Assembly: GCA_002793915.1 (NCBI GenBank)
Contig: PFEF01000006.1
Span: 97,368-161,367 of the forward strand
DNA: 64,000 bases
Source of the DNA: Candidatus Ryanbacteria bacterium CG10_big_fil_rev_8_21_14_0_10_43_42
GTDB lineage: Bacteria; Patescibacteriota; Minisyncoccia; Ryanbacterales; 2-02-FULL-48-12
Reading direction: 5' to 3'
Both the position numbers and the translations under genes were made by a program. Of this stretch, positions 5,181 to 24,511 are shown in pieces (positions within the stretch are counted from its first letter, which is position 1; every line of letters starts with the position of its first letter). Below the pieces are notes generated by a model. That model was given only the letters and a program-made list of their open reading frames with translations. It did not search any database and was not told the DNA's origin.

Positions 5181-5234
5181 TGTATCTATCCTTTTTTCCT
5201 TACCACTTCCGATTTTCTACGGTATACTAATTTT

Positions 5235-7454
5235 GTGAGCATCCTTAAACAACTGGAAATTACCGGATTTAAATCGTTTGCCAAGCCGGTAACGATAGAG
5301 TTTGACGCGCCCATTACCGGTGTTGTCGGCCCGAACGGTTCGGGAAAATCAAATGTATCAGAGGCTATCAAATGGGTACTGGGCGAACAATCCATGAAGT
5401 CTTTGCGTGGAAAGCGCGGGGAAGATCTTATTTTCAACGGTTCGGGTTCGGTGTCTCAGCTCGGCAAAGCAAAGGTTTCCATTACGTTCGATAATAGTAG
5501 TAAGGTGCTTCCTCTTGATTTTGATGAGGTGATTGTTTCGCGTGAGGTATATCGGGACGGAGCGAATGAATATAAATTAAACGGATCTTCCGTGCGCCTA
5601 AAGGATGTTGTGGAACTTATGAGTAATGTGGGCGTAGGCGGATCGGGGCATCATATTATAAGCCAGGGGGAGGCGGATAGGATTTTACATGCATCACCCA
5701 AAGAAAAGCGCGCCATGCTGGAGGATGCGCTGGGGCTTAAAATTTATCAGATAAAGAAAGCGGAAACGGAGCGCAAGCTTGAGCATACGGAAACAAACAT
5801 GGTCCAAGTGGAGGCTCTTCGTCGCGAAGTGGCGCCGCATCTGACATTTTTACGCACGCAGGCGAAAAAAGTGGAAGCATCAAGTAAGTTACGGGAAGAG
5901 CTTAGGCAAAACGTTGCGGAATATATTGCACGGGAAAAGCATGCCATTGATAAAGAATATGCTCGTGTGGAGGCGGAGGAGGCGCCGTATAAAAAAGCAT
6001 ATGAAGAACTTGAAAAAGATTTGCATCTCATACGTTCGTCTTTTCCGAAAGGAGATGAGAAAATAGATACGGCTCACCAAAAAAAACAAGAGACGTACCG
6101 GCATGAGATGAATGAAATAGAGGAGCAGTATCGTGGATTAGAGCGTGAATTCGGCCGTTTGGAAGGACAACTTGCTGTTCTGGCAAAATCTTCCGCACCT
6201 ATTGTCTCATCACACGATGAACGCCATATTGCGGTCGGGGAGGTTAAGGACATTTTAGAGGAAATGCTTTCAATGCTTGCCGATATGGAGAACAGTAGTT
6301 CCGTAAGGGATGTGCAGGAAATTATTACACGCATACGCACGCACGCGGAGTCATTTTTGGAGCGTCTTTCCGTAAAGAAACCAAAAGAGGATATTGACAG
6401 TCAGCCCGCGGAGGAAATACATACTCTCACGAAAGAGAAGGAGTTTATGAATGATGCTATGCGGAAGCTGGCGGAGAAACGGGATGAAATGAGCCTGGTG
6501 ATGCAAAAAGAGAATGAGGACTTTATATCTTCGCGTCGGGCGCACGCGGACGCGGAGCGGCGCATGCACGATCGGGAAGCGGAATTATATACGGTAAAGG
6601 AGACGCTTCAGAAGTATGCGTTTATGAAAGAGCGTGTTCGGCTTCGGGAAGATGAATGGACGCGCGAGCATGAAGAAATGAAGCATATAGTGGAACAAGC
6701 GGACATGGGACGTTATACAGAGGCGTTTTCCCGGGAGGAACGTGAGCAACTTCGCCGGTCTATCCAACGGCTTAAGATAAAACTGGAAGAAGTGGGCGGT
6801 ATTGATACTGCTGTTTTGGAGGAATATAACGAAGTCGCCGAGCGCGATCAATTTTTAGAAAAAGAACTTTCCGATTTGCGGGAATCGGACGAATCTCTTC
6901 GCGCGCTGATGGAAGAATTACAAACACACCTCGAACATGATTTTCAAAAGGGTATTACGCAGATTAATATCGAGTTTGCTCATTTGTTTCAGACAATGTT
7001 TGGGGGAGGCAACGCTTCTCTTATTACCGTTAAAGAAAAAAAACGAAAACAAAACCGCGAGGAAGAATATGAGCAGGAAGAAAATGGCGTTGAGGATGAT
7101 GGGGAAGCCGGTATAGAGATAGCTGTAGATCTTCCGCGGAAACGTATTAAAAATCTTGATATGCTTTCCGGCGGAGAGCGCGCTCTTACCTCAATTGCTC
7201 TTTTATTTGCGATGTCTATTGTCAATCCGCCGCCGTTTTTGGTGCTTGATGAAACGGATGCGGCGCTCGATGAAGCAAATTCACAGCGGTACGGTGCCAT
7301 GCTTCAGCAACTTTCCAAAGAAACACAGCTTATTGTCATAACGCATAATCGTCAAACAATGAAAGAAGCGGGTATTCTTTACGGGGTTACAATGGGATCG
7401 GACGGTATCTCGAAGATATTATCGGTTAAATTTAATGAAGAAAAAACGCCATAA
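5235..7454 (+). CDS. smc: chromosome segregation SMC-like ATPase (short, 739 aa)
   Basis: N-terminal Walker A (GPNGSGKSN), a long coiled-coil region, and a C-terminal ABC signature LSGGERALTSIALLFA with Walker B VLDETDAALD. Sits at the conserved rnc-smc position. Confidence 0.7.
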   Translation: MSILKQLEITGFKSFAKPVTIEFDAPITGVVGPNGSGKSNVSEAIKWVLGEQSMKSLRGKRGEDLIFNGSGSVSQLGKAKVSITFDNSSKVLPLDFDEVIVSREVYRDGANEYKLNGSSVRLKDVVELMSNVGVGGSGHHIISQGEADRILHASPKEKRAMLEDALGLKIYQIKKAETERKLEHTETNMVQVEALRREVAPHLTFLRTQAKKVEASSKLREELRQNVAEYIAREKHAIDKEYARVEAEEAPYKKAYEELEKDLHLIRSSFPKGDEKIDTAHQKKQETYRHEMNEIEEQYRGLEREFGRLEGQLAVLAKSSAPIVSSHDERHIAVGEVKDILEEMLSMLADMENSSSVRDVQEIITRIRTHAESFLERLSVKKPKEDIDSQPAEEIHTLTKEKEFMNDAMRKLAEKRDEMSLVMQKENEDFISSRRAHADAERRMHDREAELYTVKETLQKYAFMKERVRLREDEWTREHEEMKHIVEQADMGRYTEAFSREEREQLRRSIQRLKIKLEEVGGIDTAVLEEYNEVAERDQFLEKELSDLRESDESLRALMEELQTHLEHDFQKGITQINIEFAHLFQTMFGGGNASLITVKEKKRKQNREEEYEQEENGVEDDGEAGIEIAVDLPRKRIKNLDMLSGGERALTSIALLFAMSIVNPPPFLVLDETDAALDEANSQRYGAMLQQLSKETQLIVITHNRQTMKEAGILYGVTMGSDGISKILSVKFNEEKTP

Positions 7455-9608: not shown

Positions 9609-9744
9609 TGGACGCACACTCATATTTTGCAAGATCGTTGAAAATCTATTCTATTGTTCCGGTCGAACACGGTGCGCACTTTTTGTGTGCTGTGTTCATA
9701 TTCTGAATATTATAATGAGTAATATCACTATGGTATTTGGATTT

Positions 9745-11215
<1,471 letters not shown>

Positions 11216-11544: not shown

Positions 11545-11618
11545 GGGCGTGTAGCTCAGCTGGTTAGAGCGCGTCACTGATAATGACGAGGTCGGAGGTT
11601 CGAGTCCTCCCACGCCCA
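11545..11618 (+). tRNA. tRNA-Ile (anticodon GAT)
   Basis: Cloverleaf read by hand: acceptor gggcgtg/cacgccc, anticodon loop ctGATaa, T-loop ttcgagt. No encoded CCA. Confidence 0.9.
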
Positions 11619-11628
11619 CAGAATGGAT

Positions 11629-11717: not shown

Positions 11718-11792
11718 ACGTAATCCAAGTGGACATAAAGATACACACAGTAATAAATGCGCTTCTTGCGTATTTTTTTGTATACTATATCT

Positions 11793-12764
11793 ATGAAGCA
11801 GAATAAATTAAAAATTGGTGTTGTAATGGGCGGACCGTCGAGCGAGCATGATATTTCATTAATGACGGGTAGGAATGTTATAGATACTCTTCGCGGATTA
11901 GGGCATACGGTAACACAGGTATATGTTACCAAATCGGGCAATTGGCTCTATAACAACAGTGCTTCCGCTTTCGATCCGGTAGAGATATGCGCACGTCATG
12001 ATGTTATGTTCAATGCTATGCACGGGGAATATGGTGAGGATGGGCAGGTACAGCAAATTTTTGACAGATGCAATGTGCGGTATACGGGATCTCGCACAAC
12101 GGCGGCGGCACTTGCGATGAACAAAATAATCAGCAAAGATATTTTTAATAAGGCGGGAATCCTTACGCCAAGAGCCGTAGCGTTCGAGCGGAATAATTTT
12201 GATATGAAGGAGGCTCTTTCTCGCGTGCATCTCATGACGGCACCTCCCTGGGTAGTGAAGCCCGCAAGTCGCGGTTCTTCCGTGGGTGTTACCATAGCAC
12301 GCACACTTCCGGGGTTAGCCGACGGTTTGGAAACCGCATTCGGGTATGATAATCATGTTGTAGTGGAAGAATTTATAAAAGGACGGGAGATTACCTGTGG
12401 AGTACTTCAGGATTTTGCCGGAGAGGATGTGCACGCGCTTCACCCGCTGGAGATTATTCCGCCGGACGGAAAGTTCTTTGATTATGAAGTAAAGTATGAT
12501 GGTTCTACAAAAGAAGTTCCAGCACCGTTCTTCGGCGAAATGCTTAAAAATATTAAGGCACAGGCCGTTGCGGCTCATAATGCGCTCGGATGTCGGCATT
12601 ATTCCCGTACGGATATGATTATTAAGGGAACGAAAATATACGTTTTGGAAACGAATACCCTACCGGGACTCACAAGCGAATCGCTTTTCCCGAAACAGGC
12701 GCGATTAGCTAAAATGGAATTTCCGCAGTTACTGGAACATTTGGTGCGTTTGGCAACGGCATAA
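11793..12764 (+). CDS. ddl: D-alanine--D-alanine ligase
   Basis: MKQNKLKIGVVMGGPSSEHDISL N-terminus and an ATP-grasp pattern. The ORF track starts at 11757, but the ATG at 11793 fits the family N-terminus. Confidence 0.8.
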   Translation: MKQNKLKIGVVMGGPSSEHDISLMTGRNVIDTLRGLGHTVTQVYVTKSGNWLYNNSASAFDPVEICARHDVMFNAMHGEYGEDGQVQQIFDRCNVRYTGSRTTAAALAMNKIISKDIFNKAGILTPRAVAFERNNFDMKEALSRVHLMTAPPWVVKPASRGSSVGVTIARTLPGLADGLETAFGYDNHVVVEEFIKGREITCGVLQDFAGEDVHALHPLEIIPPDGKFFDYEVKYDGSTKEVPAPFFGEMLKNIKAQAVAAHNALGCRHYSRTDMIIKGTKIYVLETNTLPGLTSESLFPKQARLAKMEFPQLLEHLVRLATA

Positions 12765-12792: not shown

Positions 12793-13536
12793 ATGAGACG
12801 CATGCGATGGCAGAGTTGGGCTTTGGGATTTTCTCTTTTATATATTTTAGTTAAGGGATTTGGTTCATCTGAATATGCGAGTATGGTAACGCCCGCACGC
12901 TTTTATATACAGTCTTATTTTGTAGAAACGCGCCTGGTTGTATACGAAGGGGAATACTGGCGTGTTGTACTACACGAAAAGCAGAATCCGCATTTCTTGC
13001 GGAGCATCGTGCGTTTAAAACGGGTATGCGAATCTCCCGTATGCCTAACGTCTGCTGAAAGGCGAGAACGGGATGAGATAGAACTCGTACTACATACTTT
13101 GGTACTTAGATATGGCGCCACCTACACCAACTTTATGCGTCTTATGAATAATGCTTATCGTTCGCCGATTCCTATGCCGGTAATGCATTATCACTTTATT
13201 CCGCGCTACAAAACCCCATTTTCTTTTGGAGAGATATATTTTCATGATAAGGCGTATGGGCGTCATTATTCTGAAAACGAAGAAAAGCCGGTTCCTCCCG
13301 CACTTATGCTTCTCATAAAAAATATTGTAGGGAAAGAATTTAAAGACCGTATGCCAAAGCCATCCGCAGAGGTGGCTTTTTTCTTGAAAAAAAGGAAGAA
13401 CCATGGTATGGTTTTTTGTAGATTTCAAATTAAAATATTTCGAAATTTACGAGGGCGAATTTCGGTAGCTCATCTGGTAGAGCGGTTTGATATGCCCCCA
13501 GCATATCAAACTTGCACTGCGGAGGGTGGAAAGTAA
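12793..13536 (+). CDS. hypothetical protein (possible HIT-like fold); the 3' end runs into the tRNA-like element
   Basis: 247 aa ORF with no family recognised with confidence. The last 27 codons are translated from the tRNA-Ala-like sequence, so the true C-terminus or the gene's integrity is uncertain. Confidence 0.3.
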   Translation: MRRMRWQSWALGFSLLYILVKGFGSSEYASMVTPARFYIQSYFVETRLVVYEGEYWRVVLHEKQNPHFLRSIVRLKRVCESPVCLTSAERRERDEIELVLHTLVLRYGATYTNFMRLMNNAYRSPIPMPVMHYHFIPRYKTPFSFGEIYFHDKAYGRHYSENEEKPVPPALMLLIKNIVGKEFKDRMPKPSAEVAFFLKKRKNHGMVFCRFQIKIFRNLRGRISVAHLVERFDMPPAYQTCTAEGGK

Positions 13537-13566
13537 CGGGGTTACTTTCCACGGTTCGAGTCCTAG
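13465..13566 (+). pseudogene. degenerate tRNA-Ala-derived element with two perfect hairpin insertions
   Basis: Its D-arm gtagctcatctggtagagcg, the cttgcactgcgg segment and the T-loop ggttcgagtcc are identical to tRNA-Ala 150 nt downstream. The 5' anticodon-stem half is replaced by tttgatatgc/gcatatcaaa, and gtggaaagtaa/ttactttccac is inserted before the T-arm. No acceptor pairing is present. Confidence 0.5.
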
Positions 13567-13611
13567 GAGGGTAAAAGACTTTAATAATAGGTTTAGAGAC
13601 GTAAATAATAT

Positions 13612-13684
13612 GGGCCCGTAGCTCATCTGGTAGAGCGCCGCACTTGCACTGCGGAGGTGGCAGGTTCGAGTCCTGTCGGGTCCA
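13612..13684 (+). tRNA. tRNA-Ala (anticodon TGC)
   Basis: Acceptor gggcccg/cgggtcc with a G3:U70 pair, anticodon loop ctTGCac, T-loop ttcgagt. Confidence 0.9.
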
Positions 13685-13812
13685 CATCGTAAATCTCAAT
13701 AACCGTTTTTAACCTCCCGCTGTCCGCGTGCCGGCAAGGCGGAAAGAGGGAGTTTTTGGTTTGCTTAGCCGCTTTCTTGTTTACAAAACCCCTTAAATCC
13801 GATATGATTTAA

Positions 13813-13848
13813 ATATAGATATTCCATACTTTATATTATAATCTATAT
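13813..13848 (+). promoter_or_regulatory. inverted repeat (atatagat ... atctatat) spanning a TATAAT-like box upstream of the XRE gene; candidate operator
   Basis: 8 bp inverted-repeat arms separated by about 20 nt, 25-60 nt upstream of the ATG at 13872. Confidence 0.3.
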
Positions 13849-13871
13849 ACCAATTTATATAACAGAAAGTT

Positions 13872-14069
13872 ATGAAAATTGCAGATAACCTCAAAAAAAT
13901 AAGAGCGGAAAAGAGCTACTCTCTCGAAAAAGTGGCGCGGTTAGCTGATTTGTCGCTCAATACGGTTGTAAAGATAGAAAGCGGGGTCAATAAGAATCCT
14001 ACTATCGATACTCTTTCCAAAATCGCCAAGGCGCTTGAGGTTGATGTTGATGATTTAATACAGAAGTAG
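13872..14069 (+). CDS. XRE-family helix-turn-helix regulator (controller/C-protein-like)
   Basis: 65 aa with an HTH_XRE pattern (SLEKVARLADLSLNTVVKIESG). The stop codon lies 2 nt before the methyltransferase ATG. Confidence 0.7.
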   Translation: MKIADNLKKIRAEKSYSLEKVARLADLSLNTVVKIESGVNKNPTIDTLSKIAKALEVDVDDLIQK

Positions 14070-14071
14070 TT

Positions 14072-15190
14072 ATGAACACCCAAACCTTAAACATGGGCCT
14101 TAACAAGGCTGGTCAAGCAAAGAAAGATGAGTTTTATACTCAGCTCGTTGATATTGAAAAAGAGTTGAAGCATTACAAAAATCAATTTCGAGGCAAGGTT
14201 GTTTATTGCAACTGCGACGATCCGTTTGAGAGTAACTTTTTTAAATATTTCGCTGGTAATTTTAATGCACTGGGATTGAAAAAACTAATTGCGACGAGCT
14301 ACAAGCCGTCACCTATTGCAAATACACAGCTTGGACTATTTGGTGACGAAGAAGTGCTGACAAAATCCAAAGGCCGTCCAAAAGTGACTGCCAATAAATT
14401 TATCATCAACGAAGTTGATGATTTTGATGGCGACGGTGCTTTTGATTTACGTGATGTCGCTGAACAGCTCAAAGCAAACAAAAACAACGAATGGGCACCG
14501 TTAGATAGCGAGGGAGATTTTAGAAGTCCAGAAAGTATAGAGTTGCTTAAACAAGCTGACATTGTAGTGACAAATCCGCCATTTTCACTCTTTCGTGAGT
14601 ATGTAGCCCAACTTGTTGAATACGATAAGAAATTTTTAATACTTGGGGACCAAAACGCCATAACATACAAGGAGATTTTTAAGTTAATTAGCGACGATAA
14701 AATATGGCTCGGTTACGATAATGGAGGCACGAAATGGTTTCAAGTCCCGATGGATTACGACATTCCAACTGAATCAAGAAAGAAAATCGTAAACGGCGTG
14801 AAGTATTTCAGTATGGGAAGAATTATGTGGTTTACAAATCTTGAGACCACAAAACGTCACGAGAGACTGACTTTGTATAAAACATACACCGCACAAGAAT
14901 ATCCTAAATACGACAACTATCCTGCAATAAACGTTGATAAAGTCTCTGATATTCCAATGGACTACGATGGAATAATGGGTGTCCCTATTACTTTCATCGA
15001 TAAATACAATCCAGAGCAGTTTGAAATATTAGGCATTACTGATAGACAAAACACGTCTGGTCTCCGAACGAAAAAATATACAGAAGCGGACAATCCTAAA
15101 TACAACGACTTAAATGCTCGTAGCGTGATAAAAACTGGCAATACTTACAAAGCTGTGTACGCGCGACTTTTAATAAGAAATAAAAAATAA
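14072..15190 (+). CDS. N6-adenine DNA methyltransferase (NPPF motif; EcoRI-methylase-like family)
   Basis: VVTNPPFSL is catalytic motif IV of amino-methyltransferases. The N-terminal DEFYT..CDDPFES region is as in the EcoRI-methylase family, recalled from memory. Translationally coupled to its neighbours. Confidence 0.55.
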   Translation: MNTQTLNMGLNKAGQAKKDEFYTQLVDIEKELKHYKNQFRGKVVYCNCDDPFESNFFKYFAGNFNALGLKKLIATSYKPSPIANTQLGLFGDEEVLTKSKGRPKVTANKFIINEVDDFDGDGAFDLRDVAEQLKANKNNEWAPLDSEGDFRSPESIELLKQADIVVTNPPFSLFREYVAQLVEYDKKFLILGDQNAITYKEIFKLISDDKIWLGYDNGGTKWFQVPMDYDIPTESRKKIVNGVKYFSMGRIMWFTNLETTKRHERLTLYKTYTAQEYPKYDNYPAINVDKVSDIPMDYDGIMGVPITFIDKYNPEQFEILGITDRQNTSGLRTKKYTEADNPKYNDLNARSVIKTGNTYKAVYARLLIRNKK

Positions 15191-15192
15191 TT

Positions 15193-16296
15193 ATGAAAAT
15201 TGAACTACACAGAATCAAAATACGTGAGGTAGTCAATGGCTACGCAGACAATCATGAAGAAGGTGTGGTTGCTTATGGTGGCAAGCTCGATATTCGACCT
15301 AAATATCAACGTGAATTTGTCTATAAAGATAAACAGCGCGATGCGGTCATTGATACCGTAAAGAAAAATTTTCCGCTCAATGTGATGTATTGGGTAAAAA
15401 GCGACGACGATAGCTTTGAGGTGTTAGACGGACAGCAAAGAACAATCAGTATCGGGCAATTTGCGAATGGAGATTTTTCGGTGGACTTTAATGGTCGCAC
15501 TGCTATGTTCCACAACCTTACTAAAGAAGAACAGGGGCAAATCCTCGATTACGAATTGATGGTGTACTTCTGTGAAGGAACAGATAAGGAAAAGTTAGAT
15601 TGGTTCAAGATTATCAACATCGCAGGCGAACGTCTTACCGATCAAGAATTGCGAAATGCTGTTTACACTGGCACATGGCTTTCGGACGCAAAACTTAAGT
15701 TTAGTAAATCTGGCTGCGCGGCATATCTTTTGGCAAATGATGGCGGCGCATTGCTTACAGGTTCACCAATTAGACAAGAGTACCTAGAAACTGCACTCTC
15801 GTGGATCAATAGCGGCGAAATTGCCGAATATATGGCAAAGCATCAGCACGACAAGAATGCCGATGAGCTGTGGAAGTATTTCCAAAATGTTATTGCGTGG
15901 GTGCGTCAGACATTTCCGAACTATCGCAAAGAAATGGCGCACGTAAATTGGGGCGAGTTGTACAACCAATTCAAGGATAAAAAGCTAAACGCCAAGAAAC
16001 TTGAAACAGAAGTTGCAGAATTTATGAAAGACGAAGATGTAACAAAAAAATCTGGTATCTATCCGTATGTTTTGACGCGAAATGAGCGGCATTTAAATAT
16101 CCGTTCATTTACTGACAATATGAAGCGAGAGGCGTACGAGAGGCAGAAAGGTATTTGTGCATTCTGCAAAGAAAAGTTTGATATTTCTGATATGGAAGCT
16201 GATCACATTACCCCTTGGCATGAGGGCGGCAAAACTAACGCAAAAAATTGCCAGTTGTTGTGCAAAGACGATAACCGAAGGAAATCTGGAAAGTAA
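15193..16296 (+). CDS. DUF262 (ParB-like, DGQQR) domain fused to a C-terminal HNH endonuclease
   Basis: LDGQQRTISIGQF is the DUF262 hallmark. The C-terminus CAFCKEKF...ADHITPWHEGGKTNAKNCQLLCKDDNRRK is an HNH motif. Its start overlaps the methyltransferase stop (taattATG). Confidence 0.7.
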   Translation: MKIELHRIKIREVVNGYADNHEEGVVAYGGKLDIRPKYQREFVYKDKQRDAVIDTVKKNFPLNVMYWVKSDDDSFEVLDGQQRTISIGQFANGDFSVDFNGRTAMFHNLTKEEQGQILDYELMVYFCEGTDKEKLDWFKIINIAGERLTDQELRNAVYTGTWLSDAKLKFSKSGCAAYLLANDGGALLTGSPIRQEYLETALSWINSGEIAEYMAKHQHDKNADELWKYFQNVIAWVRQTFPNYRKEMAHVNWGELYNQFKDKKLNAKKLETEVAEFMKDEDVTKKSGIYPYVLTRNERHLNIRSFTDNMKREAYERQKGICAFCKEKFDISDMEADHITPWHEGGKTNAKNCQLLCKDDNRRKSGK

Positions 16297-16306
16297 CACT
16301 AACACC

Positions 16307-19300
16307 ATGAGGCTACCTCCCCAAACAATACGAACACTGTTAGAGGCAATTTTTTGGGGATCTGCTGTTTCGTTTACCTTTATTCTTGGATCCGCTATTG
16401 GATCATGGTTTTCGTTGAATATTCTCCCAGACTATTCATGGTTGATTACTCGTAAGGGCGAGGCATTTTATATTTTTGTATTCGCTCTTTTATTCTCTTA
16501 TCTTTACTTTCGAGATTTTCTACAAGTAGTATGGAAGGTCATAAAGAGTTCGAGATTTGATATTTTTATTGCGGCAGGATTAAGTGCATTGGTGGTCTTT
16601 AGCAATAAAAATATACTTTCTACATACATACAGGAGCATGTAATGGAACTAAACAGCGACAGCGTATTACTTTTCTTTATTATTGTATTTATTTTGTCGC
16701 TATCATGCGTACTGTATGTGATACTGCAAATGTTTAACCGCAGAAAGAAAGTGGACTCAAAATTTGCAAATGATAACCCAATTAGGGATTCCGAAGGCGA
16801 TCTCCTGGATTTTAGTACAAAAGCAAATTCGTTCGCAGAGAATATCTTTCATGCTTCACAGGGTAAGGGTTTAGTGTTTGGTGTAGATGCCCCTTGGGGA
16901 TCTGGTAAGTCATCATTTTTAAATCTCTGTAAGAGGTATTGGGAAATCAAACATAAAAACGAGTTAATTGTGTACGAATTTAGTCCCTTACACTATTCAA
17001 CAGATGCTAATTTACTTGAGAGATTTGTGGATGGTCTAATAAAAGAAATACAAAAGAATGTTTTTATTCCTGAGATACGCCCACTTTTTTCTCAATATTC
17101 TAAGCTCATCAAGATAGTAAATGGATTTAGTATTTTTGGGGTAAAAATTCCAGAATTTGCTAGTAGGCGCACCATTAACGATGTACATAATGATTTAGAG
17201 TGTGCACTAAATGGAATCAATAGGAGAATAATCGTTATTGTAGACGACCTAGACCGCATAGAATTAAAAGAGATTAAGAACGTATTGTTTGCAATACGTG
17301 AAAGTTTTAAATTCCCCAATATTTCGTATGTCTTATGTTACGACACAGAGAATATAAATGCATTGGAGGCAGATACGCCAGAGATTGAGACGGTGAATGA
17401 ATTCCTGGAGAAATTCGTCAATATTAAGATAAGTATTTTCCTCGATAAGAAAAACCTAGAGAATTTCGTTTCAAAAGAATTGAAAAAGGTAATTGAGGAC
17501 AAAACAACAGATCCAGAACTTGTTGCTGTCGTATTAAGCGGACTACGCGACATATTTCAATCACCTGAATTTCATCGTTATACGTCCTTTGTCGGAGACA
17601 TTAGAAAATTGAAGCGACTTGTGAATACGGTGGTTCTTTTAGAGTTGTATAAAGTAAACTTCGATAAAGCAGATATTGATAAGTTTGATTTAGCTCATTT
17701 ACTACTGATTTATATTAATTATCCAAGTATTTTCAGAAAAATTTATAACACCGAAACTGCAGGTGGTTATGGTTTTTTCTCTGCAGTTGGTCCCTATGAC
17801 AGTGAGTTTTATCCAAAAGATAAGAAGAGAAACAATGGAGAAAGGAGCGACACATATGAAAATTCTGATGTATACAACGAATATCTAGAGGACTTAACAG
17901 ATAATCAAAAGTTTCTCATTGAGCAGATATTTAATGTCACTAGGCGACTTAAGCGAGCAAAAAATAATGATAGTGCAAACCACTACATCAATAATGAAGA
18001 TTCATATCGAAAGATAGACAGTGTATCGGAAGACATAAAAACTTCCCTGGCATGTTTCAATGGTGACAAATTTACTGGTTCTGGTCGCAATCTAGAAGAT
18101 TATTTGCGTTTAATTGCTCATCTAGCGCCGCCAGAAGAAGAAAAGCAATTTGCACCTTTCAAAAACTGGCGAGACAAGATCATTAGCGAAGATATAACTA
18201 TAGAACAACTTTTTAATCAACCAGAATTTTCTGTTGAACTTGGCGAGCAAAAGCGACAAAAACTTTGGCGTCTCATTGTAAACAACACAAGGAAACTGAA
18301 TCAAAATGTTGCTGGTAATTTAATAAGGTATCTGACACAAAATATATCTAAATATTCCCTGTTTGAAAACGAGGTTCTTGGCGTAGGACTACGTCATCAT
18401 GATCTTCCTTATTTTTTGGTACGACTGCTTAATGATGCTGGATATAAAGGTAGCATGAATGGTAATAATACGGAGGAAAACATCAAAGAAATCGCTGATT
18501 GGATTTTCGGTGAAGACACCCACAAAGATGAAGGAATACTAGACGCCTTGTTAGAAGATGAGCGAGGTATTCTTGGTCTATATGATTCACTTAGTTTGAG
18601 ATTGATCTGCTGTTCCGATAGAGGTGGCGATATTTTCAACGTATCTAGAGCAATAGCAAAACACGGTAATAAAGAAGCTCCTACTGCGGGGGACACGAGA
18701 ATCATTGTAAAAGAAGAAATGCGTGAAATTTCACAGAAAATTTTTGGTGTGTTTAAATCACGATACATTGACAAAAAGATTAACATTTTTTCGGAAGTTC
18801 AAAAGTTGTCTTTGGATAATATAACGGGAGAATATTCCACTTATGTGCGAAATCAAGTGAAAGGCGGTGTTATATCTGAAGATAAGTTACAGGCAGATGT
18901 TGAATATACAAAATTTAATGCTTTAGGTTTTATTGTTTACCAGCTAGGTGATGACCAGATAAATCACGGGGTTGGTTGTGGTCTTTATGATCCTCTCGGA
19001 AATGCTGACAAAGGAATGATCAAAAACTTGATGAATAAGTATCTATTTGAGAGGTGCTTTAATCCGACAACCAGTGAGAATAATTATGAGAATCTTTTAA
19101 GTTTGCTTTTGAGGAATATTCCATTTGATGCTCTCAGGGAAGATCATTTTGGTAAAATTCCTGACTTTAAGTTAAAAACGATTGTTGGTGTTCTTGATAT
19201 ACAAACTCTCTCTGAATTTTGGAAGGAACATAGAGAAAAAATCAAGAAACTAAACTTTGAGAATTCAGGTAAAAAAATATTTATGGGAACACGATATGTA

Positions 19301-19414
19301 AATTCAGATTCTGAGGATATTTTTGCGTCCTATCAAAACGACTTGCCACGTGTATATAAGGCACTCGATGATTATATCGATAACCCTACTGGCAAAGGGG
19401 AGTCGCCCGCATAG
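16307..19414 (+). CDS. KAP-family P-loop NTPase with an N-terminal 4-5 helix transmembrane region
   Basis: Walker A GVDAPWGSGKSSFLNL and Walker B IIVIVDDLDR within a KAP-like region, preceded by about 180 aa of transmembrane helices. The ORF track begins at 16157, but the ATG at 16307 sits just after the upstream stop. Confidence 0.7.
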   Translation: MRLPPQTIRTLLEAIFWGSAVSFTFILGSAIGSWFSLNILPDYSWLITRKGEAFYIFVFALLFSYLYFRDFLQVVWKVIKSSRFDIFIAAGLSALVVFSNKNILSTYIQEHVMELNSDSVLLFFIIVFILSLSCVLYVILQMFNRRKKVDSKFANDNPIRDSEGDLLDFSTKANSFAENIFHASQGKGLVFGVDAPWGSGKSSFLNLCKRYWEIKHKNELIVYEFSPLHYSTDANLLERFVDGLIKEIQKNVFIPEIRPLFSQYSKLIKIVNGFSIFGVKIPEFASRRTINDVHNDLECALNGINRRIIVIVDDLDRIELKEIKNVLFAIRESFKFPNISYVLCYDTENINALEADTPEIETVNEFLEKFVNIKISIFLDKKNLENFVSKELKKVIEDKTTDPELVAVVLSGLRDIFQSPEFHRYTSFVGDIRKLKRLVNTVVLLELYKVNFDKADIDKFDLAHLLLIYINYPSIFRKIYNTETAGGYGFFSAVGPYDSEFYPKDKKRNNGERSDTYENSDVYNEYLEDLTDNQKFLIEQIFNVTRRLKRAKNNDSANHYINNEDSYRKIDSVSEDIKTSLACFNGDKFTGSGRNLEDYLRLIAHLAPPEEEKQFAPFKNWRDKIISEDITIEQLFNQPEFSVELGEQKRQKLWRLIVNNTRKLNQNVAGNLIRYLTQNISKYSLFENEVLGVGLRHHDLPYFLVRLLNDAGYKGSMNGNNTEENIKEIADWIFGEDTHKDEGILDALLEDERGILGLYDSLSLRLICCSDRGGDIFNVSRAIAKHGNKEAPTAGDTRIIVKEEMREISQKIFGVFKSRYIDKKINIFSEVQKLSLDNITGEYSTYVRNQVKGGVISEDKLQADVEYTKFNALGFIVYQLGDDQINHGVGCGLYDPLGNADKGMIKNLMNKYLFERCFNPTTSENNYENLLSLLLRNIPFDALREDHFGKIPDFKLKTIVGVLDIQTLSEFWKEHREKIKKLNFENSGKKIFMGTRYVNSDSEDIFASYQNDLPRVYKALDDYIDNPTGKGESPA

Positions 19415-19468
19415 CGGGCGGTTTGCGCGCGCACTGGGAGGGTGGGGCAAACGCAAAGACATTTTTTG
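19404..19468 (+). terminator. GC-rich tandem hairpins ending in a T-run; the KAP gene stop codon lies in the first loop
   Basis: cgcccgc-atag-gcgggcg, then gtttgc..gcaaac, then attttttg. Confidence 0.4.
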
Positions 19469-19542
19469 CCTACTTTGTTATAATTCACAAAAAGCGGACA
19501 TGTCGACCCGCTCTCATATAAATCAACTAACCTTTTATAACT

Positions 19543-19887
19543 ATGGCTAAAAAAATTTCAACTGAAGAAGTAAAGAGTAAATTGGATAAAAACGAGAACT
19601 TTTATCTCATTGATACATTGGCGGCCAACAGCTTTGAGGCGCGCCACATCCCCGGAGCAAAAAGCATGCCGTATGGAACTGATTTTATAAAACAATTTGA
19701 GCAAGTAATTAACGCCCAGAAAGACGCAGAGATCATAACTTATTGCGCCTCAAATGGATGTCAGCTATCAGCGTTGGCCGCCAATGCTCTTGAAGAAGCC
19801 GGCTATACGAATGTTGGTCATTATGTTGACGGTCTCGCAGGTTGGCAAAACGCAGGCCATAAATTTGAAGGAGAAGCGACGAAATAG
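19543..19887 (+). CDS. rhodanese-domain sulfurtransferase
   Basis: Active-site loop YCASNGCQ in a 114 aa single-domain protein. Confidence 0.7.
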   Translation: MAKKISTEEVKSKLDKNENFYLIDTLAANSFEARHIPGAKSMPYGTDFIKQFEQVINAQKDAEIITYCASNGCQLSALAANALEEAGYTNVGHYVDGLAGWQNAGHKFEGEATK

Positions 19888-19985
19888 TTTGGATTAAGGG
19901 AGTAAAATTATGCGCACACTGGGCGAGTGTGGCAAGCACAATATGGTAAACTACAAGGGTCGATTAATAACTAACCATAAAAACT

Positions 19986-20186
19986 ATGAAAACTCTAAAA
20001 TGTGATATGTGCGACCATGAAGCACAGGGCGAAACGTTTGGGGAGTGGATGAATAATCTCAAGCCACATTATACCGAGGCGCATGCTGAAGTTATGAAGG
20101 GAAAGGCAGATCTAACTCCCGAACAACAAAAGACGGAAATGCAGAAGTGGATGGACGAGAACAAGGCAAGATTCGAAGCCGCGTAG
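19986..20186 (+). CDS. small DUF1059-like protein
   Basis: 66 aa, MKxLKCDMCDHEAQGET...HYTEAHAEVM pattern resembling DUF1059 (recalled from memory). Confidence 0.35.
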   Translation: MKTLKCDMCDHEAQGETFGEWMNNLKPHYTEAHAEVMKGKADLTPEQQKTEMQKWMDENKARFEAA

Positions 20187-20304
20187 TTTTGCCGCACAAA
20201 CATCGCCGAAGCCACAGAGCGAACACGAAGCAAACACCGAGCTCCATTTAGTAAATACCCGGAAAAGTCCTTATTTTAAATCATGTCATGCCTCTTTTGA
20301 TCCT

Positions 20305-20326
20305 CTATATCACTAGATTGATATAG
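20305..20326 (+). promoter_or_regulatory. palindrome ctatatca-ctagat-tgatatag upstream of the fic gene; candidate operator
   Basis: Perfect 8 bp inverted arms, about 160 nt upstream of the Fic start. Confidence 0.25.
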
Positions 20327-20487
20327 TAAAAATGCTTGATTTATCAGTGGATACTAGGCCAGTTTTTTAGGGCTGATTATGTCGGCTTTTTGCACCAAGT
20401 CGTAATACAAATATCCTTATTGCACTTTTTGTGGATATCTGGTAATATGGGAATACGTGTTTCAACTTAGACAAAACAAGTAAAACT

Positions 20488-21651
20488 ATGGAGAACAAAG
20501 CACAGCAAAATGACAAATTTATGGCAGGTACTCACAAAAAGCACTTCTGGGGTAAGGATTATGAATACCAGAGTTTTTTGCCGTCTCCGGTAAATCATCC
20601 CTACGAGTGGCAAGATAAAAGAATTCCTGTTCTCCTTGAAGAGGCAATTAGACTTGTCGGAGAATTAAATGCTTATTCCATCCTTGTGCCGGATGTAGAT
20701 TTTTTCATTCAAATGCATGTGCGCAATGAAGCGGTAAAATCCAGTCGCATTGAAGGCACTCGCACTGGTATGGATGAAGCTGTTTTGCCGGAAGAAGAAA
20801 TCTCTCCGGAAAAAAGAGATGACTGGACTGAGGTACAAAATTATATTGCCGCAATGAATAAGAGTATTGCCCGATTGAATGAGCTCCCGATCTCGATGAG
20901 GCTTTTACAAGAAGCTCATAAGATTTTATTGTCCGGCGTTCGTGGTGAACACAAACAACCGGGAGAAGTTCGCACCGCACAAAATTGGATTGGCGGCACA
21001 AGTATTCAGACCGCCGCTTTTATTCCACCCCATCCGGAAGATATGGGAGAGGCCTTAAAGGACCTTGAATTTTTTTGGCATAACAAAGGATTGAATATGC
21101 CCCACTTAATCAAGATGGCTATTTCGCATTATCAGTTTGAGACGATTCACCCGTTCAATGACGGCAACGGGAGAATTGGCCGTATGCTCATCGGGCTTCA
21201 TCTCATCGAGCTTGGAATTTTGCGAAAACCAACCCTGTATCTTTCGGACTTCTTTGAAAGAAATAAAGGTGCGTATTATGACGCGCTTACTTTTGTGCGA
21301 GAGAGGAATGATCTGGATCAATGGATAGTCTTTTTCCTCTCGGCAGTTATTGAGACGGCCAAAAAAGGCAAAGATACGTTCGAGAAAATTATCGATCTGC
21401 GTGCTCGCTACGAGAAACAAACTATGGAGCTCGGACGCCGGGCAAAACTGGCTCATAAACTTTTATTACAGTCATTTTCCATGCCTGCTTTTAAAGTTTC
21501 TGATGCATCAAAGTATCTTAACGCTTCAAACACGGCGACCAACACCCTTGTCGGCGAAATGGAGCGCGTTGGTATTCTTAAGGAAATTACCGGTTTTTCC
21601 CGTAACCGGATTTTTGTCCTGCACGAGTATCTGGAACTTTTTAAGAGATAA
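20488..21651 (+). CDS. fic: Fic-family protein (AMPylator/toxin-like) with an intramolecular inhibitory motif
   Basis: Fic motif [12 protein letters not shown], an N-terminal SSRIEG ([ST]xxxE[GN]) inhibitory helix, and a C-terminal winged-helix-like tail. Confidence 0.85.
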
Positions 21652-21857
21652 AGCTATGAAAAAGGAAATCGCCACAACAACTAAACAGGAAAGCTACTAC
21701 AGATTTGGATTTGTGGGATTAGGATTTAGTGTCAGCCACTATTGAATTTAATTCCCGTCAGGTCCACCCTGTTTTGATAAAATCAACTTTATGTTATATT
21801 ATCTAAACGATTGACAGTCAGGTGAGGAGAGTCAATTTCTCCAAAAACTTAAAACAG

Positions 21858-21888
21858 TCCCGTGGAATCCACGGGGCTGTTTTTATTG
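21858..21888 (+). terminator. hairpin cccgtgg-aat-ccacggg followed by ctgttttta
   Basis: Read directly in the sequence, 200 nt downstream of fic in a gene-free A+T-rich stretch. Confidence 0.3.
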
Positions 21889-22002
21889 GGCACACAGAAA
21901 AACTAAAAGGAAAGCCGGCCATCCTTCTATTTTTGCCTCTGGTTCCGTATTCTGTCGCACGGGCGTATTTCTTCATATACGATATTCTGGTACATTTAAG
22001 AT

Positions 22003-22527
22003 ATGAAAATAGTTGTAGCTTCTCAAAATCCGGTTAAAGTAGAATCCGTAAAACGCGCTTTTGAAAGCATGTTTCCGGAAGAAGTGTTTGAAATAGCCGG
22101 CACTCCTGCTGTGTCCGGTGTACGTGATCAGCCGTGCAGTGATAAAGAAACATTGGAGGGCGCGTATAATAGAGTGGCACACGTTGTAAAAATGACGGAT
22201 GCGGATTTTTGGGTTGGTTTAGAGGGCGGAATAGAAGATAAGGGCACCGAAATGGAAGCATTTGCGTGGGTGGTAGTGAAGGCAAAAGATAATAAAATAG
22301 GGAAAGGCCGGACGGGTGTATATATTTTGCCCCCGAGAGTAGCGGAGCTTATTCGGCAAGGGAAAGAATTGGGAGAAGCAGATGATATTGTATTTAAGAG
22401 AACAAATTCGAAACAAGAAAACGGCTCGGTGGGTATTCTAACGGCGGACAGCATAGACAGAACGAAGTATTATACGGCCGCCGCCATACTTGCCCTTATT
22501 CCTTTTAAGAATAAAGAGTTATATTAA
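22003..22527 (+). CDS. yjjX: inosine/xanthosine triphosphatase (non-canonical purine NTP phosphatase, YjjX family)
   Basis: MKIVVASQNPVKV..., DFWVGLEGGIE and a C-terminal ILALIPF closely parallel E. coli YjjX. Confidence 0.7.
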   Translation: MKIVVASQNPVKVESVKRAFESMFPEEVFEIAGTPAVSGVRDQPCSDKETLEGAYNRVAHVVKMTDADFWVGLEGGIEDKGTEMEAFAWVVVKAKDNKIGKGRTGVYILPPRVAELIRQGKELGEADDIVFKRTNSKQENGSVGILTADSIDRTKYYTAAAILALIPFKNKELY

Positions 22528-22697
22528 ATTCTATCGATACGGGAATTCTTGAGCTTATTTATAAAGAATATATGTTTTTAAAGCGCAACGAGTCAGCTTT
22601 GGCGGAATGGTATACATTTTACACACAGTCTGGTACTATGGGCAGTAATACATGTAATTATGTATAAGGGAATATTAGATTTAGTAGCTATATTATA

Positions 22698-23384
22698 ATG
22701 GATAATACACATATGGACGATGCAAACACACAAGAAAGTATGGAGGAAAACATATCATCTTCGGCTAAAGATATGTCGAGCCAGGTAAATATAACAATGA
22801 AGAAATCCAAGCTGGTTTATATTATAATCGCAGGCGTGATCGTTCTTATTCTTGTCGGACTGTTCTTCGCTAAAAGTCTTTTTGTAGCGGCAACGGTAAA
22901 CGGTAGTCCGATAAGTCGTTTTTCCGTTATTAGCGAGCTTGAAAAACAAAGTGGTGCGCAGGTGCTTGGAGCCATAATAGATCAAAAGCTTATTAAGGCC
23001 GAACTTGATAATCAGGGTGTAAGCGTGGCGGAGGAAGAGATAGATGCGGAAATTAAAAAAATTGAAGAACAAATTGCAAGCCAGGGCGGAGAACTAAGTC
23101 AGATTCTCGCCGCGCAAGGCGTTACAGAAACGGAACTTCGTGAACAGATTAGTATCCAGAAACGATTGGAAAAAATATTAGCAGATAAAATTGTTGTTTC
23201 AGATGAGGAGGTAAATGCGTATATCACGGATAACGCCATTACTCTTCCGGAGGGAATGACAATGGAGGTGTTTGTCGGACAGATTAAAGAGCAGTTAAAA
23301 AATCAGAAATTTCAGCAGGAAGCAGGGCAATGGGTATCTGATGTAACGGCAAGTGCGGACATCAAATATTATATCGAATATTAA
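22698..23384 (+). CDS. membrane-anchored SurA-N-terminal-domain chaperone-like protein
   Basis: An N-terminal acidic region, one transmembrane helix, then a SurA_N-like helical domain. No PPIase domain was recognised. Confidence 0.45.
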   Translation: MDNTHMDDANTQESMEENISSSAKDMSSQVNITMKKSKLVYIIIAGVIVLILVGLFFAKSLFVAATVNGSPISRFSVISELEKQSGAQVLGAIIDQKLIKAELDNQGVSVAEEEIDAEIKKIEEQIASQGGELSQILAAQGVTETELREQISIQKRLEKILADKIVVSDEEVNAYITDNAITLPEGMTMEVFVGQIKEQLKNQKFQQEAGQWVSDVTASADIKYYIEY

Positions 23385-23431
23385 ACAAATAAAATAAGCA
23401 TGTTTCTTGGAATGAGTAAGTACTGCAGAAT

Positions 23432-23456
23432 AAACCGCCTTATTGGCGGTTTATTG
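23432..23456 (+). terminator. rho-independent terminator (aaccgcc-ttat-tggcggttt)
   Basis: Stem-loop plus a T-rich tail after the SurA-like gene. Confidence 0.4.
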
Positions 23457-23461
23457 TTGTT

Positions 23462-24511
23462 ATGGAAAAATTGATAATTTATAATGGCGTATATATGGAA
23501 TCTGTAAAAAATACCGATAAAAATATACACGCCGTCTTTGAAGGGGGCGGCGTAAAAGGGACGGGACTTGTAGGGGCCGTGCAGGTAACGGAGGATCACG
23601 GATATATATTTGACCGTGTCGCGGGTACTTCGGCGGGTGCTATTATAGCCGCTCTTATAGCGGCCGGTTATACGGCAAGCGAAATGAAAGAAATTATGTT
23701 TGCATTGGATTATAGGAAGTTTAAAGATAAGGGACTGGGAGACAGTATACCGCTTGTAGGACCTCTTGCGAGTTTGCTTATTACAAAAGGTATTTATGAA
23801 GGAGATTATTTTGAAAACTGGTTAAGAGATTTGCTCTTACAAAAGAATATCAGAACTTTCAAGGATCTTTTGATTGATGAAAACATCAAAGACTCGACGT
23901 ACAGATACAAGCTTCAGGTCATAGCGTCGGATGTTTCGCGCGGAAGACTTATTACACTTCCGCATGACGTGAGCGAATATGGTTTTGTACCCAATGATTT
24001 TGATGTTGCAAGAGCTGTTAGAATGAGTATGAGCATTCCTTTTTTCTATAAGCCGGTTATCATGAAAAATGCAAAAGGGGACGCTTCATTCATTGTAGAC
24101 GGAGGAATTTTAAGTAATTATCCCGTTGGAATTTTTGATCCCGTGGGAAATACGAGTCCTCTCTGGCCAACATTCGGCTATAAACTGGTGGAACCGGATG
24201 AATATAAGCCACACAATATCAACGGTCCGGTAAGCCTTTTAGCGGCACTGTTTTCGACCATGATGGAGGCGCATGATGCAAGATATATTAAGGATACGAA
24301 TTTCCAGCGTACGATACCCATAGAAACGCTGGGTGTCCAAACCACCGATTTTGATACGACCATAGAGAAAAAACAGGAGCTTTATGAAAGCGGAAAAAAG
24401 GCCGCAGAGGAATTTTTCCAAAAGTGGAACTTTGAAGAATACAATCAAAAGCGTGGAAAAGGAGAAAGCCGCAGACAGCAAGTTTGGAAATCGAAAGAAG
24501 AGGCGGGATGA
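23462..24511 (+). CDS. patatin-like phospholipase
   Basis: GGGVKG oxyanion motif, GTSAG serine-nucleophile motif and DGG. Confidence 0.8.

Follow-up and report, generated by a model that had tools for sequence, protein, structure and literature searches.

Bacteria of the candidate phyla radiation (CPR), or Patescibacteria, have tiny genomes, are for the most part without CRISPR and are believed to depend on restriction systems. How these bacteria acquire and exchange restriction-modification (R-M) systems is poorly documented. Cassette chromosomes of the staphylococcal (SCC) type with CcrAB, integrative and mobilizable elements (IMEs) of the large serine recombinase (LSR) type and prophages of this type are LSR integrative elements, and R-M systems are often part of their cargo. 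PvuII and Esp1396I are type II R-M systems controlled by a C protein, and the pairing of DUF262 with HNH is modification-dependent in enzymes of the GmrSD/BrxU/SspE type. Another organization is that of the tycheposons of Prochlorococcus, additive tRNA islands in which elements land at a tRNA, decay and are pushed distally (bioRxiv 10.1101/2020.12.28.424599). Genomic islands with R-M systems have also been reported in Patescibacteria in general terms (PMC12455944). Here, we analyzed a defence island located downstream of tRNA-Ala(TGC) in a stretch of 64,000 nt, hereafter the window, of Candidatus Ryanbacteria bacterium CG10_big_fil_rev_8_21_14_0_10_43_42 (contig PFEF01000006.1, positions 97,368 to 161,367). 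With a probability of about 0.7, we consider that positions 13686-21767 constitute an additive tRNA-proximal defence island, made of at least three horizontally acquired and now immobile modules (Table 1).

A preliminary description of this DNA had proposed that accessory defence genes were inserted as an island just 3′ of tRNA-Ala. Our data agree: the tRNA ends at 13685, the first island gene starts at 13872, the relatives lack all the genes of the island, and a distant locus shows the same gene order without the insert. The uniform origin first assumed for the island does not stand, as at least three independently mobile modules can be distinguished. Module 1 (13.73-19.46 kb), nearest to the tRNA, would be the youngest and would represent a degenerate copy from a family of cassettes in circulation among Patescibacteria as well as other bacteria of groundwater. 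Module 2 (19.46-20.24 kb), with a rhodanese, a second GC hairpin, a gene for a 66-aa protein and a stub of a noncoding element named B1, would be the tail zone of the cassette. Module 3 (20.41-21.65 kb) would be a self-contained unit of a promoter and a Fic gene. The least ameliorated DNA adjoins the tRNA and thus fits the additive island model described for tycheposons. As with tycheposons, the host genome is streamlined, tRNAs are the sites, and degenerate elements accumulate, the newest apparently nearest to the tRNA. Unlike tycheposons, the cargo is related to phage defence and not to nutrient uptake, a replication module is lacking, long inverted repeats and a conserved noncoding element are present in the cassettes, and direct repeats of a partial tRNA were not found in intact members. 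A further point in common is that a minority of tycheposons use an LSR (bioRxiv 10.1101/2020.12.28.424599).

The interval 13690-21900 has a GC content of 38.8% vs. 43.0% for the rest of the window, about 2.3 standard deviations (sd) under the mean, and it is the lowest-GC stretch of 8.2 kb in the 64 kb. Windowed GC ranged between 33 and 41% at 13.75-19.45 kb and between 41 and 46% over the rhodanese, the small open reading frame (ORF) and Fic. The synonymous-codon likelihood per codon was -0.115 to -0.132 for the first four genes, which encode a helix-turn-helix (HTH) protein, a methyltransferase (MTase), a restriction endonuclease (REase) and a KAP-family nucleoside triphosphatase (NTPase), vs. 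a background of -0.008 (sd 0.042). The codon usage of this block deviates by about 2.5-3 sd, and the KAP NTPase gene has the lowest GC (GC at third codon positions, 0.31). The windowed check suggested in the preliminary description therefore bears out a compositional anomaly carried by these four genes. The A+T richness and atypical codons that it attributed to the whole interval are found at 13.75-19.45 kb, but not for the rhodanese, Fic or the tail. The foreign signal is limited to about two thirds of the interval, namely four co-oriented genes spaced by 2-10 nt. The suggestion that the island is old does not agree with the unameliorated composition of the tRNA-proximal block, nor with a REase 86-89% identical to foreign copies.

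Table 1. Positions of the features of the island and of its proximal surroundings in the window.
Feature	Position	Strand	Evidence or remark
16S rRNA	9744-11215		
tRNA-Ile	11545-11619		
ddl	11757-12764		
Degenerate tRNA-Ala copy (pseudo-tRNA)	13455-13575	+	Blocks of 20, 16 and 12 nt exactly as in the real tRNA
tRNA-Ala(TGC)	13612-13685	+	ARAGORN; Rfam 66 bits; proximal border of the island
S′ (left inverted repeat) stub, ~45 nt	13730-13776	-	Intact copies start with GAAGCGGCGG
Controller promoter/operator region	13777-13871	+	~74% nt identity to L072 from ~13780; promoter-like site 13780-13808
HTH_3 protein, 65 aa, predicted R-M controller (C)	13872-14069	+	Pfam HTH_3 E = 3.6e-14; PADLOC Control_protein E = 5e-9
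EcoRI-family N6-adenine DNA MTase, 372 aa	14072-15190	+	Pfam EcoRI_methylase E = 8.7e-139; PADLOC MTase_II E = 2e-121
DUF262 (GmrSD_N) + HNH protein, 367 aa, predicted type II REase	15193-16296	+	PADLOC REase_II PDLC03418 E = 5e-142, full length
KAP-family P-loop NTPase, 1035 aa	16307-19414	+	Pfam KAP_NTPase E = 5.6e-44; PADLOC PifA E = 4e-35
GC hairpin after last cargo gene	19424-19456	+	4 mismatches to 33-nt consensus; aligned to L072
Rhodanese, single-domain, 114 aa	19543-19887	+	Pfam Rhodanese E = 1.2e-17
Second, degenerate GC hairpin	19909-19941	+	5 mismatches to consensus; ~90% matches to several cassette loci
66-aa Cys/His protein	19986-20186	+	No family match
B1 stub, first 36 nt of ~180-nt right-end element	20207-20242	+	35/36 identical to L072
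Promoter + class II SoFic-like Fic AMP-transferase module	20409-21652	+	CDS 20488-21651, 387 aa, Fic_N + Fic
Degenerate direct repeat of tRNA-Ala 3′ end, TCCCGTCAGGTCCAC	21753-21767	+	13/15 identical to 13671-13685
Intrinsic-terminator-like hairpin + T-run	21855-21886	+	~200 nt past Fic stop; terminator scan

Relatives were found via ddl, whose nearest homologues belong to Ryanbacteria and Parcubacteria, and this gave six loci with 62-70% ddl identity (fetched loci are designated by L numbers). These loci retain the frame 16S/tRNA-Ile/ddl ... tRNA-Ala ... uvrA-sigma70-DUF8128-DUF87, and their ddl-uvrA interval measures 2.8-7.3 kb, with a different content in each and with tRNA-Ala shifting in place and strand. 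In the comparison to relatives proposed earlier for finding the empty site, none of the island genes was present between ddl and uvrA in any of the six loci. Downstream of tRNA-Ala, the sequence of the relatives did not align to either island junction, except for a tRNA-like fragment in L059. A more distant patescibacterial metagenome-assembled genome (MAG; L007) provides an empty-site-like locus, with ddl, a small gene, tRNA-Ala(TGC), 240 nt and NTPase_I-T in succession, i.e., the order of the window minus the island. In the window, three genes lie between the island and uvrA (22003-24511), encoding NTPase_I-T (inosine/xanthosine triphosphatase), a SurA-like protein and a patatin-like phospholipase. 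Their composition is native, and the patatin gene gave weak PADLOC matches to phospholipase effectors. None of the three occurs in the ddl-uvrA interval of the six relatives, and the variable region may reach 24.5 kb.

The distribution of homologues points in the same direction. The window REase is 100% identical to an NCBI protein of Candidatus Ryanbacteria bacterium CG10_big_fil_rev_8_21_14_0_10_43_42. More than 8000 close homologues of this REase exist, and it shares 77-89% identity with those from Paceibacterota, Uhrbacteria and a 2.66-Mb genome that is not of CPR size. Fic proteins are 89-95% identical on other contigs and 76-83% identical in Nealsonbacteria, Uhrbacteria, Actinomycetota and Nitrospirae. 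For ddl, the best non-self match is 79%, and identity to other CPR classes is about 50%. As REase and Fic are closer to those of other phyla or classes than ddl is to that of any relative, the island genes were probably acquired horizontally. A chimera of assembly or binning, in which foreign low-GC DNA was joined to a Ryanbacteria contig, was also considered, and cassettes of the family do often break assemblies at their conserved flanks. Six independent assemblies (ENA, JGI and Logan samples) were 100% identical to the window across 10-20 kb, four of them spanning both island junctions at 100% identity and the other two containing parts of the island. Since the junctions are reproduced in independent assemblies, the arrangement is not an assembly artefact, and the contig on record reaches 524 kb. 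A chimera is thus hardly credible.

The first four genes can be read as a C-M-R operon followed by a co-transcribed NTPase of the abortive-infection type. The gaps between them are of 2, 2 and 10 nt, the last gene starting with ATG at 16307. The MTase and REase belong to type II families, both matching PADLOC type II models along their full length, and lie in the same operon as the C protein, which would place the system among C-controlled type II R-M systems. The order C-M-R in one operon is similar to that of these systems, and the small HTH_3 protein follows a palindromic operator-like sequence (TATAGAT/ATCTATA, C-box-like and spotted by eye). Unlike PvuII and Esp1396I, the nuclease is composed of DUF262 (ParB/GmrSD-N-like) and HNH, and a fourth, variable NTPase gene is co-transcribed. 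The protein encoded by this gene resembles PifA, the KAP NTPase of the F plasmid involved in abortive infection, by its KAP P-loop domain and its hydrophobic N-terminal region. Unlike for PifA as a whole, only the P-loop core can be aligned (profile positions 160-292 of 720), the window protein having 1035 aa. The defence genes are full-length, the HTH, MTase and REase proteins having 65, 372 and 367 aa vs. 65-68, 352-370 and 363-367 aa in relatives. The cargo list of the preliminary description was right about the R-M-like operon, the rhodanese and the class II Fic, and has to be completed by this fourth operon gene of a different defence family. Its proposal of a DUF1059-like protein for the 66-aa product was not retained, as no Pfam DUF1059 match was obtained even at E ≤ 10.

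From their family membership, on which all the enzyme activities of the island proteins are predicted, a division of labour can be proposed. When the system enters a new host, the C protein would delay expression of the nuclease; adenine of the host DNA would be methylated by the EcoRI-family enzyme, and the DUF262-HNH enzyme would cut incoming unmethylated DNA. Abortive-infection or toxin layers would be added by the KAP NTPase, which is PifA-like and membrane-associated, and by the AMP-transferase, which is SoFic-like. We also tried to deduce the R-M specificity from palindrome avoidance, and this was abandoned, since sites of the EcoRI family were not avoided and the sole depleted site, GGCC, is unrelated. 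GGCC was observed 92 times in 64 kb vs. 167 expected (z of about -5.8), a hint that another part of the genome has, or once had, an R-M system of the HaeIII type.

The cassette family to which Module 1 is related was defined from 59 metagenome contigs and loci L066-L072. Three further genomic contexts preserve the HTH-methylase-nuclease triplet, its DNA being 73-78% identical to that of the window, and a large ATPase that differs between them (AAA_15/21, AAA_13, a helicase or an unassigned protein of 558 aa) follows or interrupts it. The cassette is low-GC in each host, with 36-40% vs. 44-50% in the flanks. The window HTH is 89% identical to that of cassettes L072 and L084. Noncoding DNA is also common to the window and L072, namely about 95 nt upstream of the HTH gene, the GC hairpin after the fourth gene and a 36-nt block. 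A tRNA gene is located just upstream of the triplet: tRNA-Ala(GGC) in Uhrbacteria, tRNA-Glu in L066 and tRNA-Ser in L072. Altogether, adjacency to a tRNA was observed in the window and in eight other independent contexts, four of them via cassettes that share the right-end element. For example, L122 has the order infB-rbfA-tRNA-Cys-cassette, without recombinase.

These contexts bear on another explanation, according to which the ddl-uvrA interval, a broken rRNA operon, is a recombination hotspot that turns over by homologous exchange of its flanks after DNA uptake, without site-specific insertion. The changing content of the interval among relatives, the mobility of tRNA-Ala in place and strand and the lack of a recombinase in the window are in line with it, as are LSR-less cassettes beside tRNAs elsewhere (L122, L066, L068). 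However, the cassette is found beside tRNAs for Ala-TGC, Ala-GGC, Glu, Cys and Ser with nonhomologous flanks, which flank exchange cannot explain, and an LSR directly bordering the tRNA is present in related copies. We therefore regard a simple hotspot as unlikely.

The 36-nt block is the start of the right-end element, B1-B2-B3, a noncoding element of about 180 nt with 74-98% conservation per column. The exact 23-nt core of B1 was found in 59 metagenome contigs. The element usually lies about 25 nt past the GC hairpin and is then followed by an outward promoter-like site, TTGCCA...TGCTAAAAT. In 28 contigs, it is on the same strand as the HTH gene and 3-6 kb downstream of it, and the cargo in between is an EcoRI-type M with DUF262-HNH, a C5 methylase, a type IIG/ISP enzyme or others. 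The stem of the GC hairpin covaries (TTGYGC/GCRCAA), and the hairpin CGYGARC-GAA-TGYGARCG shows compensatory changes, with double changes in 14 and 19 sequences. In 15 loci, the element and the GC hairpin gave no match in Rfam 15 at the gathering threshold, and matches at E ≤ 5 were at chance level. The B1 23-mer had no exact match in 2.9 million viral contigs (IMG/VR). This absence argues against a prophage or phage-satellite remnant, for which one could invoke that prophages commonly contain defence genes and genes resembling HTH repressors, and that the HTH protein has a weak RstR-like match in NCBIfam. As no capsid, terminase, replication or lysis genes are present in the island either, a phage origin appears very improbable.

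Long inverted repeats, S′ and S, bracket the cargo segment of the family. One inner edge precedes the start codon of the HTH gene by about 100 nt, the other falls at B1+207 to B1+211, and the pairs vary from one locus to another (388 nt and 100% identity in L087; 119 nt, 97%, and 82 nt, 94%, in L075; 123 nt, 81%, in L101). The repeats are genuine and not an assembly artefact, because some pairs are non-identical. Most contigs begin and end inside the repeats and consequently many stop 200-400 nt past B1. Just outside the repeat, an LSR gene (Resolvase, Recombinase and Zn-ribbon domains), always reading away from the cargo, is present in nine loci (L066, L072, L075, L084, L087, L089, L092, L095, L105). 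L072, L075, L087, L092 and L095 have it at the HTH end, whereas L084, L089 and L105 have it at the B3 end. In L072, L075, L089 and L105, there is overlap between the 3′ end of the LSR gene and a tRNA gene. Like SCC and LSR-type IMEs, the family thus associates an LSR with the three domains to one end of a small cargo, and long direct repeats are not needed. Unlike them, it would target tRNA 3′ ends, inverted repeats of 80-390 nt bracket the cargo, and the LSR is outside the repeat-bounded segment, beside either end. The LSR gene of intact cassettes is itself flanked by shorter inverted repeats (52 nt, 96%, at 1-52 / 1541-1592 in L087; 120 nt, 100%, at 5065-5184 / 6584-6703 in L075; also between B1 and the recombinase start in L105 and L089), with one arm in or near the LSR 3′ end at the tRNA and the other upstream of the start codon. 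Such repeats might delimit another invertible unit, belong to the attachment (att) sites or be in part an assembly artefact.

An intact cassette is ordered as follows: tRNA, LSR (3′ end at the tRNA), S′, HTH gene with its operator, variable R-M cargo, a variable additional ATPase/NTPase, GC hairpin, B1-B3, promoter-like site and S. We tentatively suggest that such a segment, with repeats of 80-390 nt, interchangeable R-M and abortive-infection cargo, the structured B1-B3 element and an LSR abutting the tRNA that would both integrate it at tRNA genes and invert it, may be an undescribed vehicle of defence genes in CPR and groundwater bacteria, a proposal that we hold to be possible and somewhat doubtful. 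Inversion would change which end faces the LSR gene, which would make the defence phase-variable or self-regulating. This idea was suggested by the LSR at either end, by one cassette with two right flanks, by the non-identical repeats and by the two covarying hairpins. The second of these concerns L089 and L125 (also L127), which share a 4.7-kb cassette that is 100% identical, followed on the right by a recombinase and tRNA-Ile in L089 vs. unrelated host genes in L125. The divergence is at or inside the right inverted repeat, which has an internal deletion of about 150 nt in L089, and it is the sole direct hint of rearrangement at the repeats. Inverted repeats that bracket a segment beside a serine recombinase recall the Hin/Gin-type and phase-variable R-M invertons (PMC7672463), as do the recombinase at either end and the identical cassette with two right flanks. 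Unlike in invertons, the recombinase is large and is not a small invertase, and the repeats are much longer; inversion itself is hypothetical here. A literature search, which was not exhaustive, revealed no description of an architecture combining inverted repeats, a recombinase and a conserved element, and the cassette family may be undescribed.

The window keeps part of this architecture. The HTH gene and its conserved upstream region are present, as well as two GC hairpins and B1. The left repeat is reduced to a stub, separated from the end of tRNA-Ala by 44 unassigned nt, whose local alignment to the S repeat of L085 scored 52 (null maximum of 33 with 40 control pieces) and within which 16 nt are exactly as in L085 and L129. 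On the right side, copies of the 66-aa protein with 68% identity are encoded at the corresponding place in the tails of cassettes L077 and L078, and similarity to the family ends abruptly at 20242. B2, B3, the outward promoter-like site and the right inverted repeat are absent from the window without remnants, alignment scores for the right repeat at 19.4-22.1 kb being at the null level. The gap 20243-20408 and the tail 21652-22002 have no homology to any fetched locus. With an S′ stub as its only repeat and no LSR, the window copy would be a decayed derivative and not an intact member. One deletion would have removed the LSR and most of S′, and a second break at 20242 would have removed B2, B3, S and what lay beyond. 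The simplest reading is a family member stripped of its mobility end by deletions on both sides. The preliminary description had noted that no integrase, recombinase or transposase was present, and indeed no such domain was detected at 13.4-22 kb. Its suggestion that the island may have been fixed by a different mechanism can be made precise in part: the mechanism can be named as an LSR-associated cassette family with a deleted recombinase end, the role of the LSR itself being deduced from relatives.

The Fic module has a history of its own. Its DNA is 77-81% identical to that of L132 and L133; this similarity begins about 80 nt before the start codon and ends exactly with the stop codon, and in the two loci examined Fic is located after secA or among unrelated genes. 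As homology is confined to the promoter and the gene in unrelated neighbourhoods, Fic constitutes a separate, single-gene mobile module. The protein matched SoFic in PADLOC (E = 5e-112) and SoFic structures (E = 1e-30 to 1e-32; PDB 3ZCN, E = 9e-32). It resembles SoFic by a full-length match, by a catalytic motif of the HxFx(D/E)GNGRxxR type and by an N-terminal inhibitory SSRIEG, the last two features placing it in class II. Unlike SoFic, it falls under the NCBIfam equivalog cut-off (151 vs. 550 bits), and its role in defence is a predicted one.

Beyond Fic, the gene-free tail described earlier as about 350 nt long with a terminator hairpin was retrieved and measures 351 nt. The absence of a repeat of the tRNA-Ala 3′ end downstream, as reported at first, was contradicted, as the tail contains TCCCGTCAGGTCCAC (13/15). 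When both strands of the window are considered, no further match to the tRNA-Ala 3′ end has ≤2 mismatches (0.07 expected by chance), and the repeat aligns with a clear tRNA-Ala 3′ fragment beside the tRNA-Ala of L059. In a generic Smith-Waterman alignment of the tRNA plus 75 nt to the tail, 16/200 shuffles reached the score of the repeat, which is not significant alone. A repeat search at 13.3-22.2 kb gave only chance-level pairs and the pseudo-tRNA blocks, and no 17-mer with ≤3 mismatches. The repeat, short and defined post hoc, is plausibly what is left of a displaced att site and would mark the island's distal border. Relics of tRNA 3′ ends were also seen in L059 (GAGTTCGATTCTCCGCAGGTCCAC, about 60 nt 3′ of its tRNA-Ala at 4190-4263, minus strand) and in Uhrbacteria L068, where two T-loop-like remnants (GGTTCGAAC) lie between tRNA-Ala(GGC) and the cassette (6411-6620). 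They suggest recurrent recombination at these tRNAs.

Another explanation is a classical tyrosine-integrase island, in which a single element would have entered the 3′ end of tRNA-Ala with duplication of ~15-20 nt (21753-21767), all genes arriving together and the integrase being lost later. The 13/15 repeat on the same strand in the gene-free tail, the analogous fragment of L059 and the upstream pseudo-tRNA relics, which show a history of rearrangement at tRNA-Ala, can be cited in its favour. The heterogeneous composition of the island, the separate occurrence of Fic and the cassette elsewhere, the differing module histories already indicated and the lack of any trace of an integrase are opposed to it, and the repeat is weak in generic alignment. 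An origin of this type is, in our opinion, quite improbable.

Several observations weigh against an additive island whose first module was brought by an LSR. The former presence of the LSR in the window is deduced from relatives: no LSR pseudogene fragment was found in the window and no recombinase domain at 13.4-22 kb. An LSR remnant was searched for, and the only match obtained was the tRNA gene on the opposite strand. LSR-less copies of the cassette exist elsewhere (L122, L066, L068), and the Uhrbacteria copies are devoid of the B1 element. The long perfect repeats at contig ends are perhaps partly an assembly artefact, those that are non-identical (81-97%) being safe. Intact members (L072, L075, L104) have no direct repeat of a tRNA fragment at the far end, so that the 13/15 repeat of the window is not explained by the LSR model and may be due to a different event. 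The insertion would rest on family-level relatives and on the single empty-site-like locus L007, with a ddl identity of 41%, and a genus-level relative (ddl >80%) on a long contig was not found in the collections searched. The rhodanese (-0.043), Fic (-0.075; 43% GC) and the tail are indistinguishable from native genes, and the relative age of the rhodanese, the 66-aa gene and Fic is a guess. Finally, GAATTC, CAATTG and AATT are not avoided in the 64 kb, which gives no R-M specificity. Despite these points, we maintain the additive, decayed island as the preferred reading, and we infer that an LSR moved the cassette and that Module 1 came last.

The proximal border of the island also deserves description. 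tRNA-Ala(TGC) is a spacer tRNA, and the rRNA operon to which it belongs is fragmented, with the order 16S, tRNA-Ile, ddl, a 247-aa ORF (12793-13536) and tRNA-Ala here; no 23S or 5S rRNA was detected within the 64-kb window. As L057 and L063 share the layout 16S...tRNA-Ile...ddl...tRNA-Ala, the break-up of the operon is older than the island. In L063 (Parcubacteria Gr01-1014_29), a LAGLIDADG_2 homing-endonuclease ORF directly follows the 16S rRNA 3′ end (674-1315). The window tRNA-Ala has a long D loop, GCTCATCTGGTAGAGC, and resembles that of the distant L007 (2533-2606). The tRNA-Ala of the closer ddl relatives carries GCATAGTGGTAGTGC, unlike that of the window. Also, the NTPase adjoining tRNA-Ala is 65% identical to that of L007 vs. 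41% for ddl, and the neighbourhood of tRNA-Ala and NTPase may itself have been exchanged.

The degenerate tRNA-Ala copy noted upstream in the preliminary description does exist (pseudo-tRNA, about 13455-13575). Its interpretation as the relic of the att site is unproven, and the downstream repeat at 21753-21767 is a better candidate. The pseudo-tRNA is devoid of the 3′ acceptor strand, was called neither by ARAGORN nor by Rfam and folds with z = -3.0. It contains two perfect hairpins of 11-12 bp (13486-13510 and 13527-13551), which occupy the expected places of the 5′ anticodon-stem strand and of the variable loop / 5′ T-stem strand; seven perfect hairpins of this kind occur in the whole window. 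It may have originated by tandem duplication, by an earlier integration or by a small palindromic insertion. The annotated 247-aa ORF runs through it. A HIT-like reading of this ORF was discarded, as no family match was obtained and the last ~25 codons cross the pseudo-tRNA.

For the window itself, the outcome is modest: an immobilised and ordinary defence island, all the gene families of which are known. The locus nevertheless points to a concrete route for the spread of defence in these reduced genomes, by which small R-M and abortive-infection cassettes would cross CPR classes, land beside tRNAs and become fixed upon loss of the recombinase end. The conserved flanks of the family (the GAAGCGGCGG repeat, the GC hairpin and B1-B3) would also explain why short-read assemblies break at such loci, and they provide handles for mining variable defence cargo from metagenomes.

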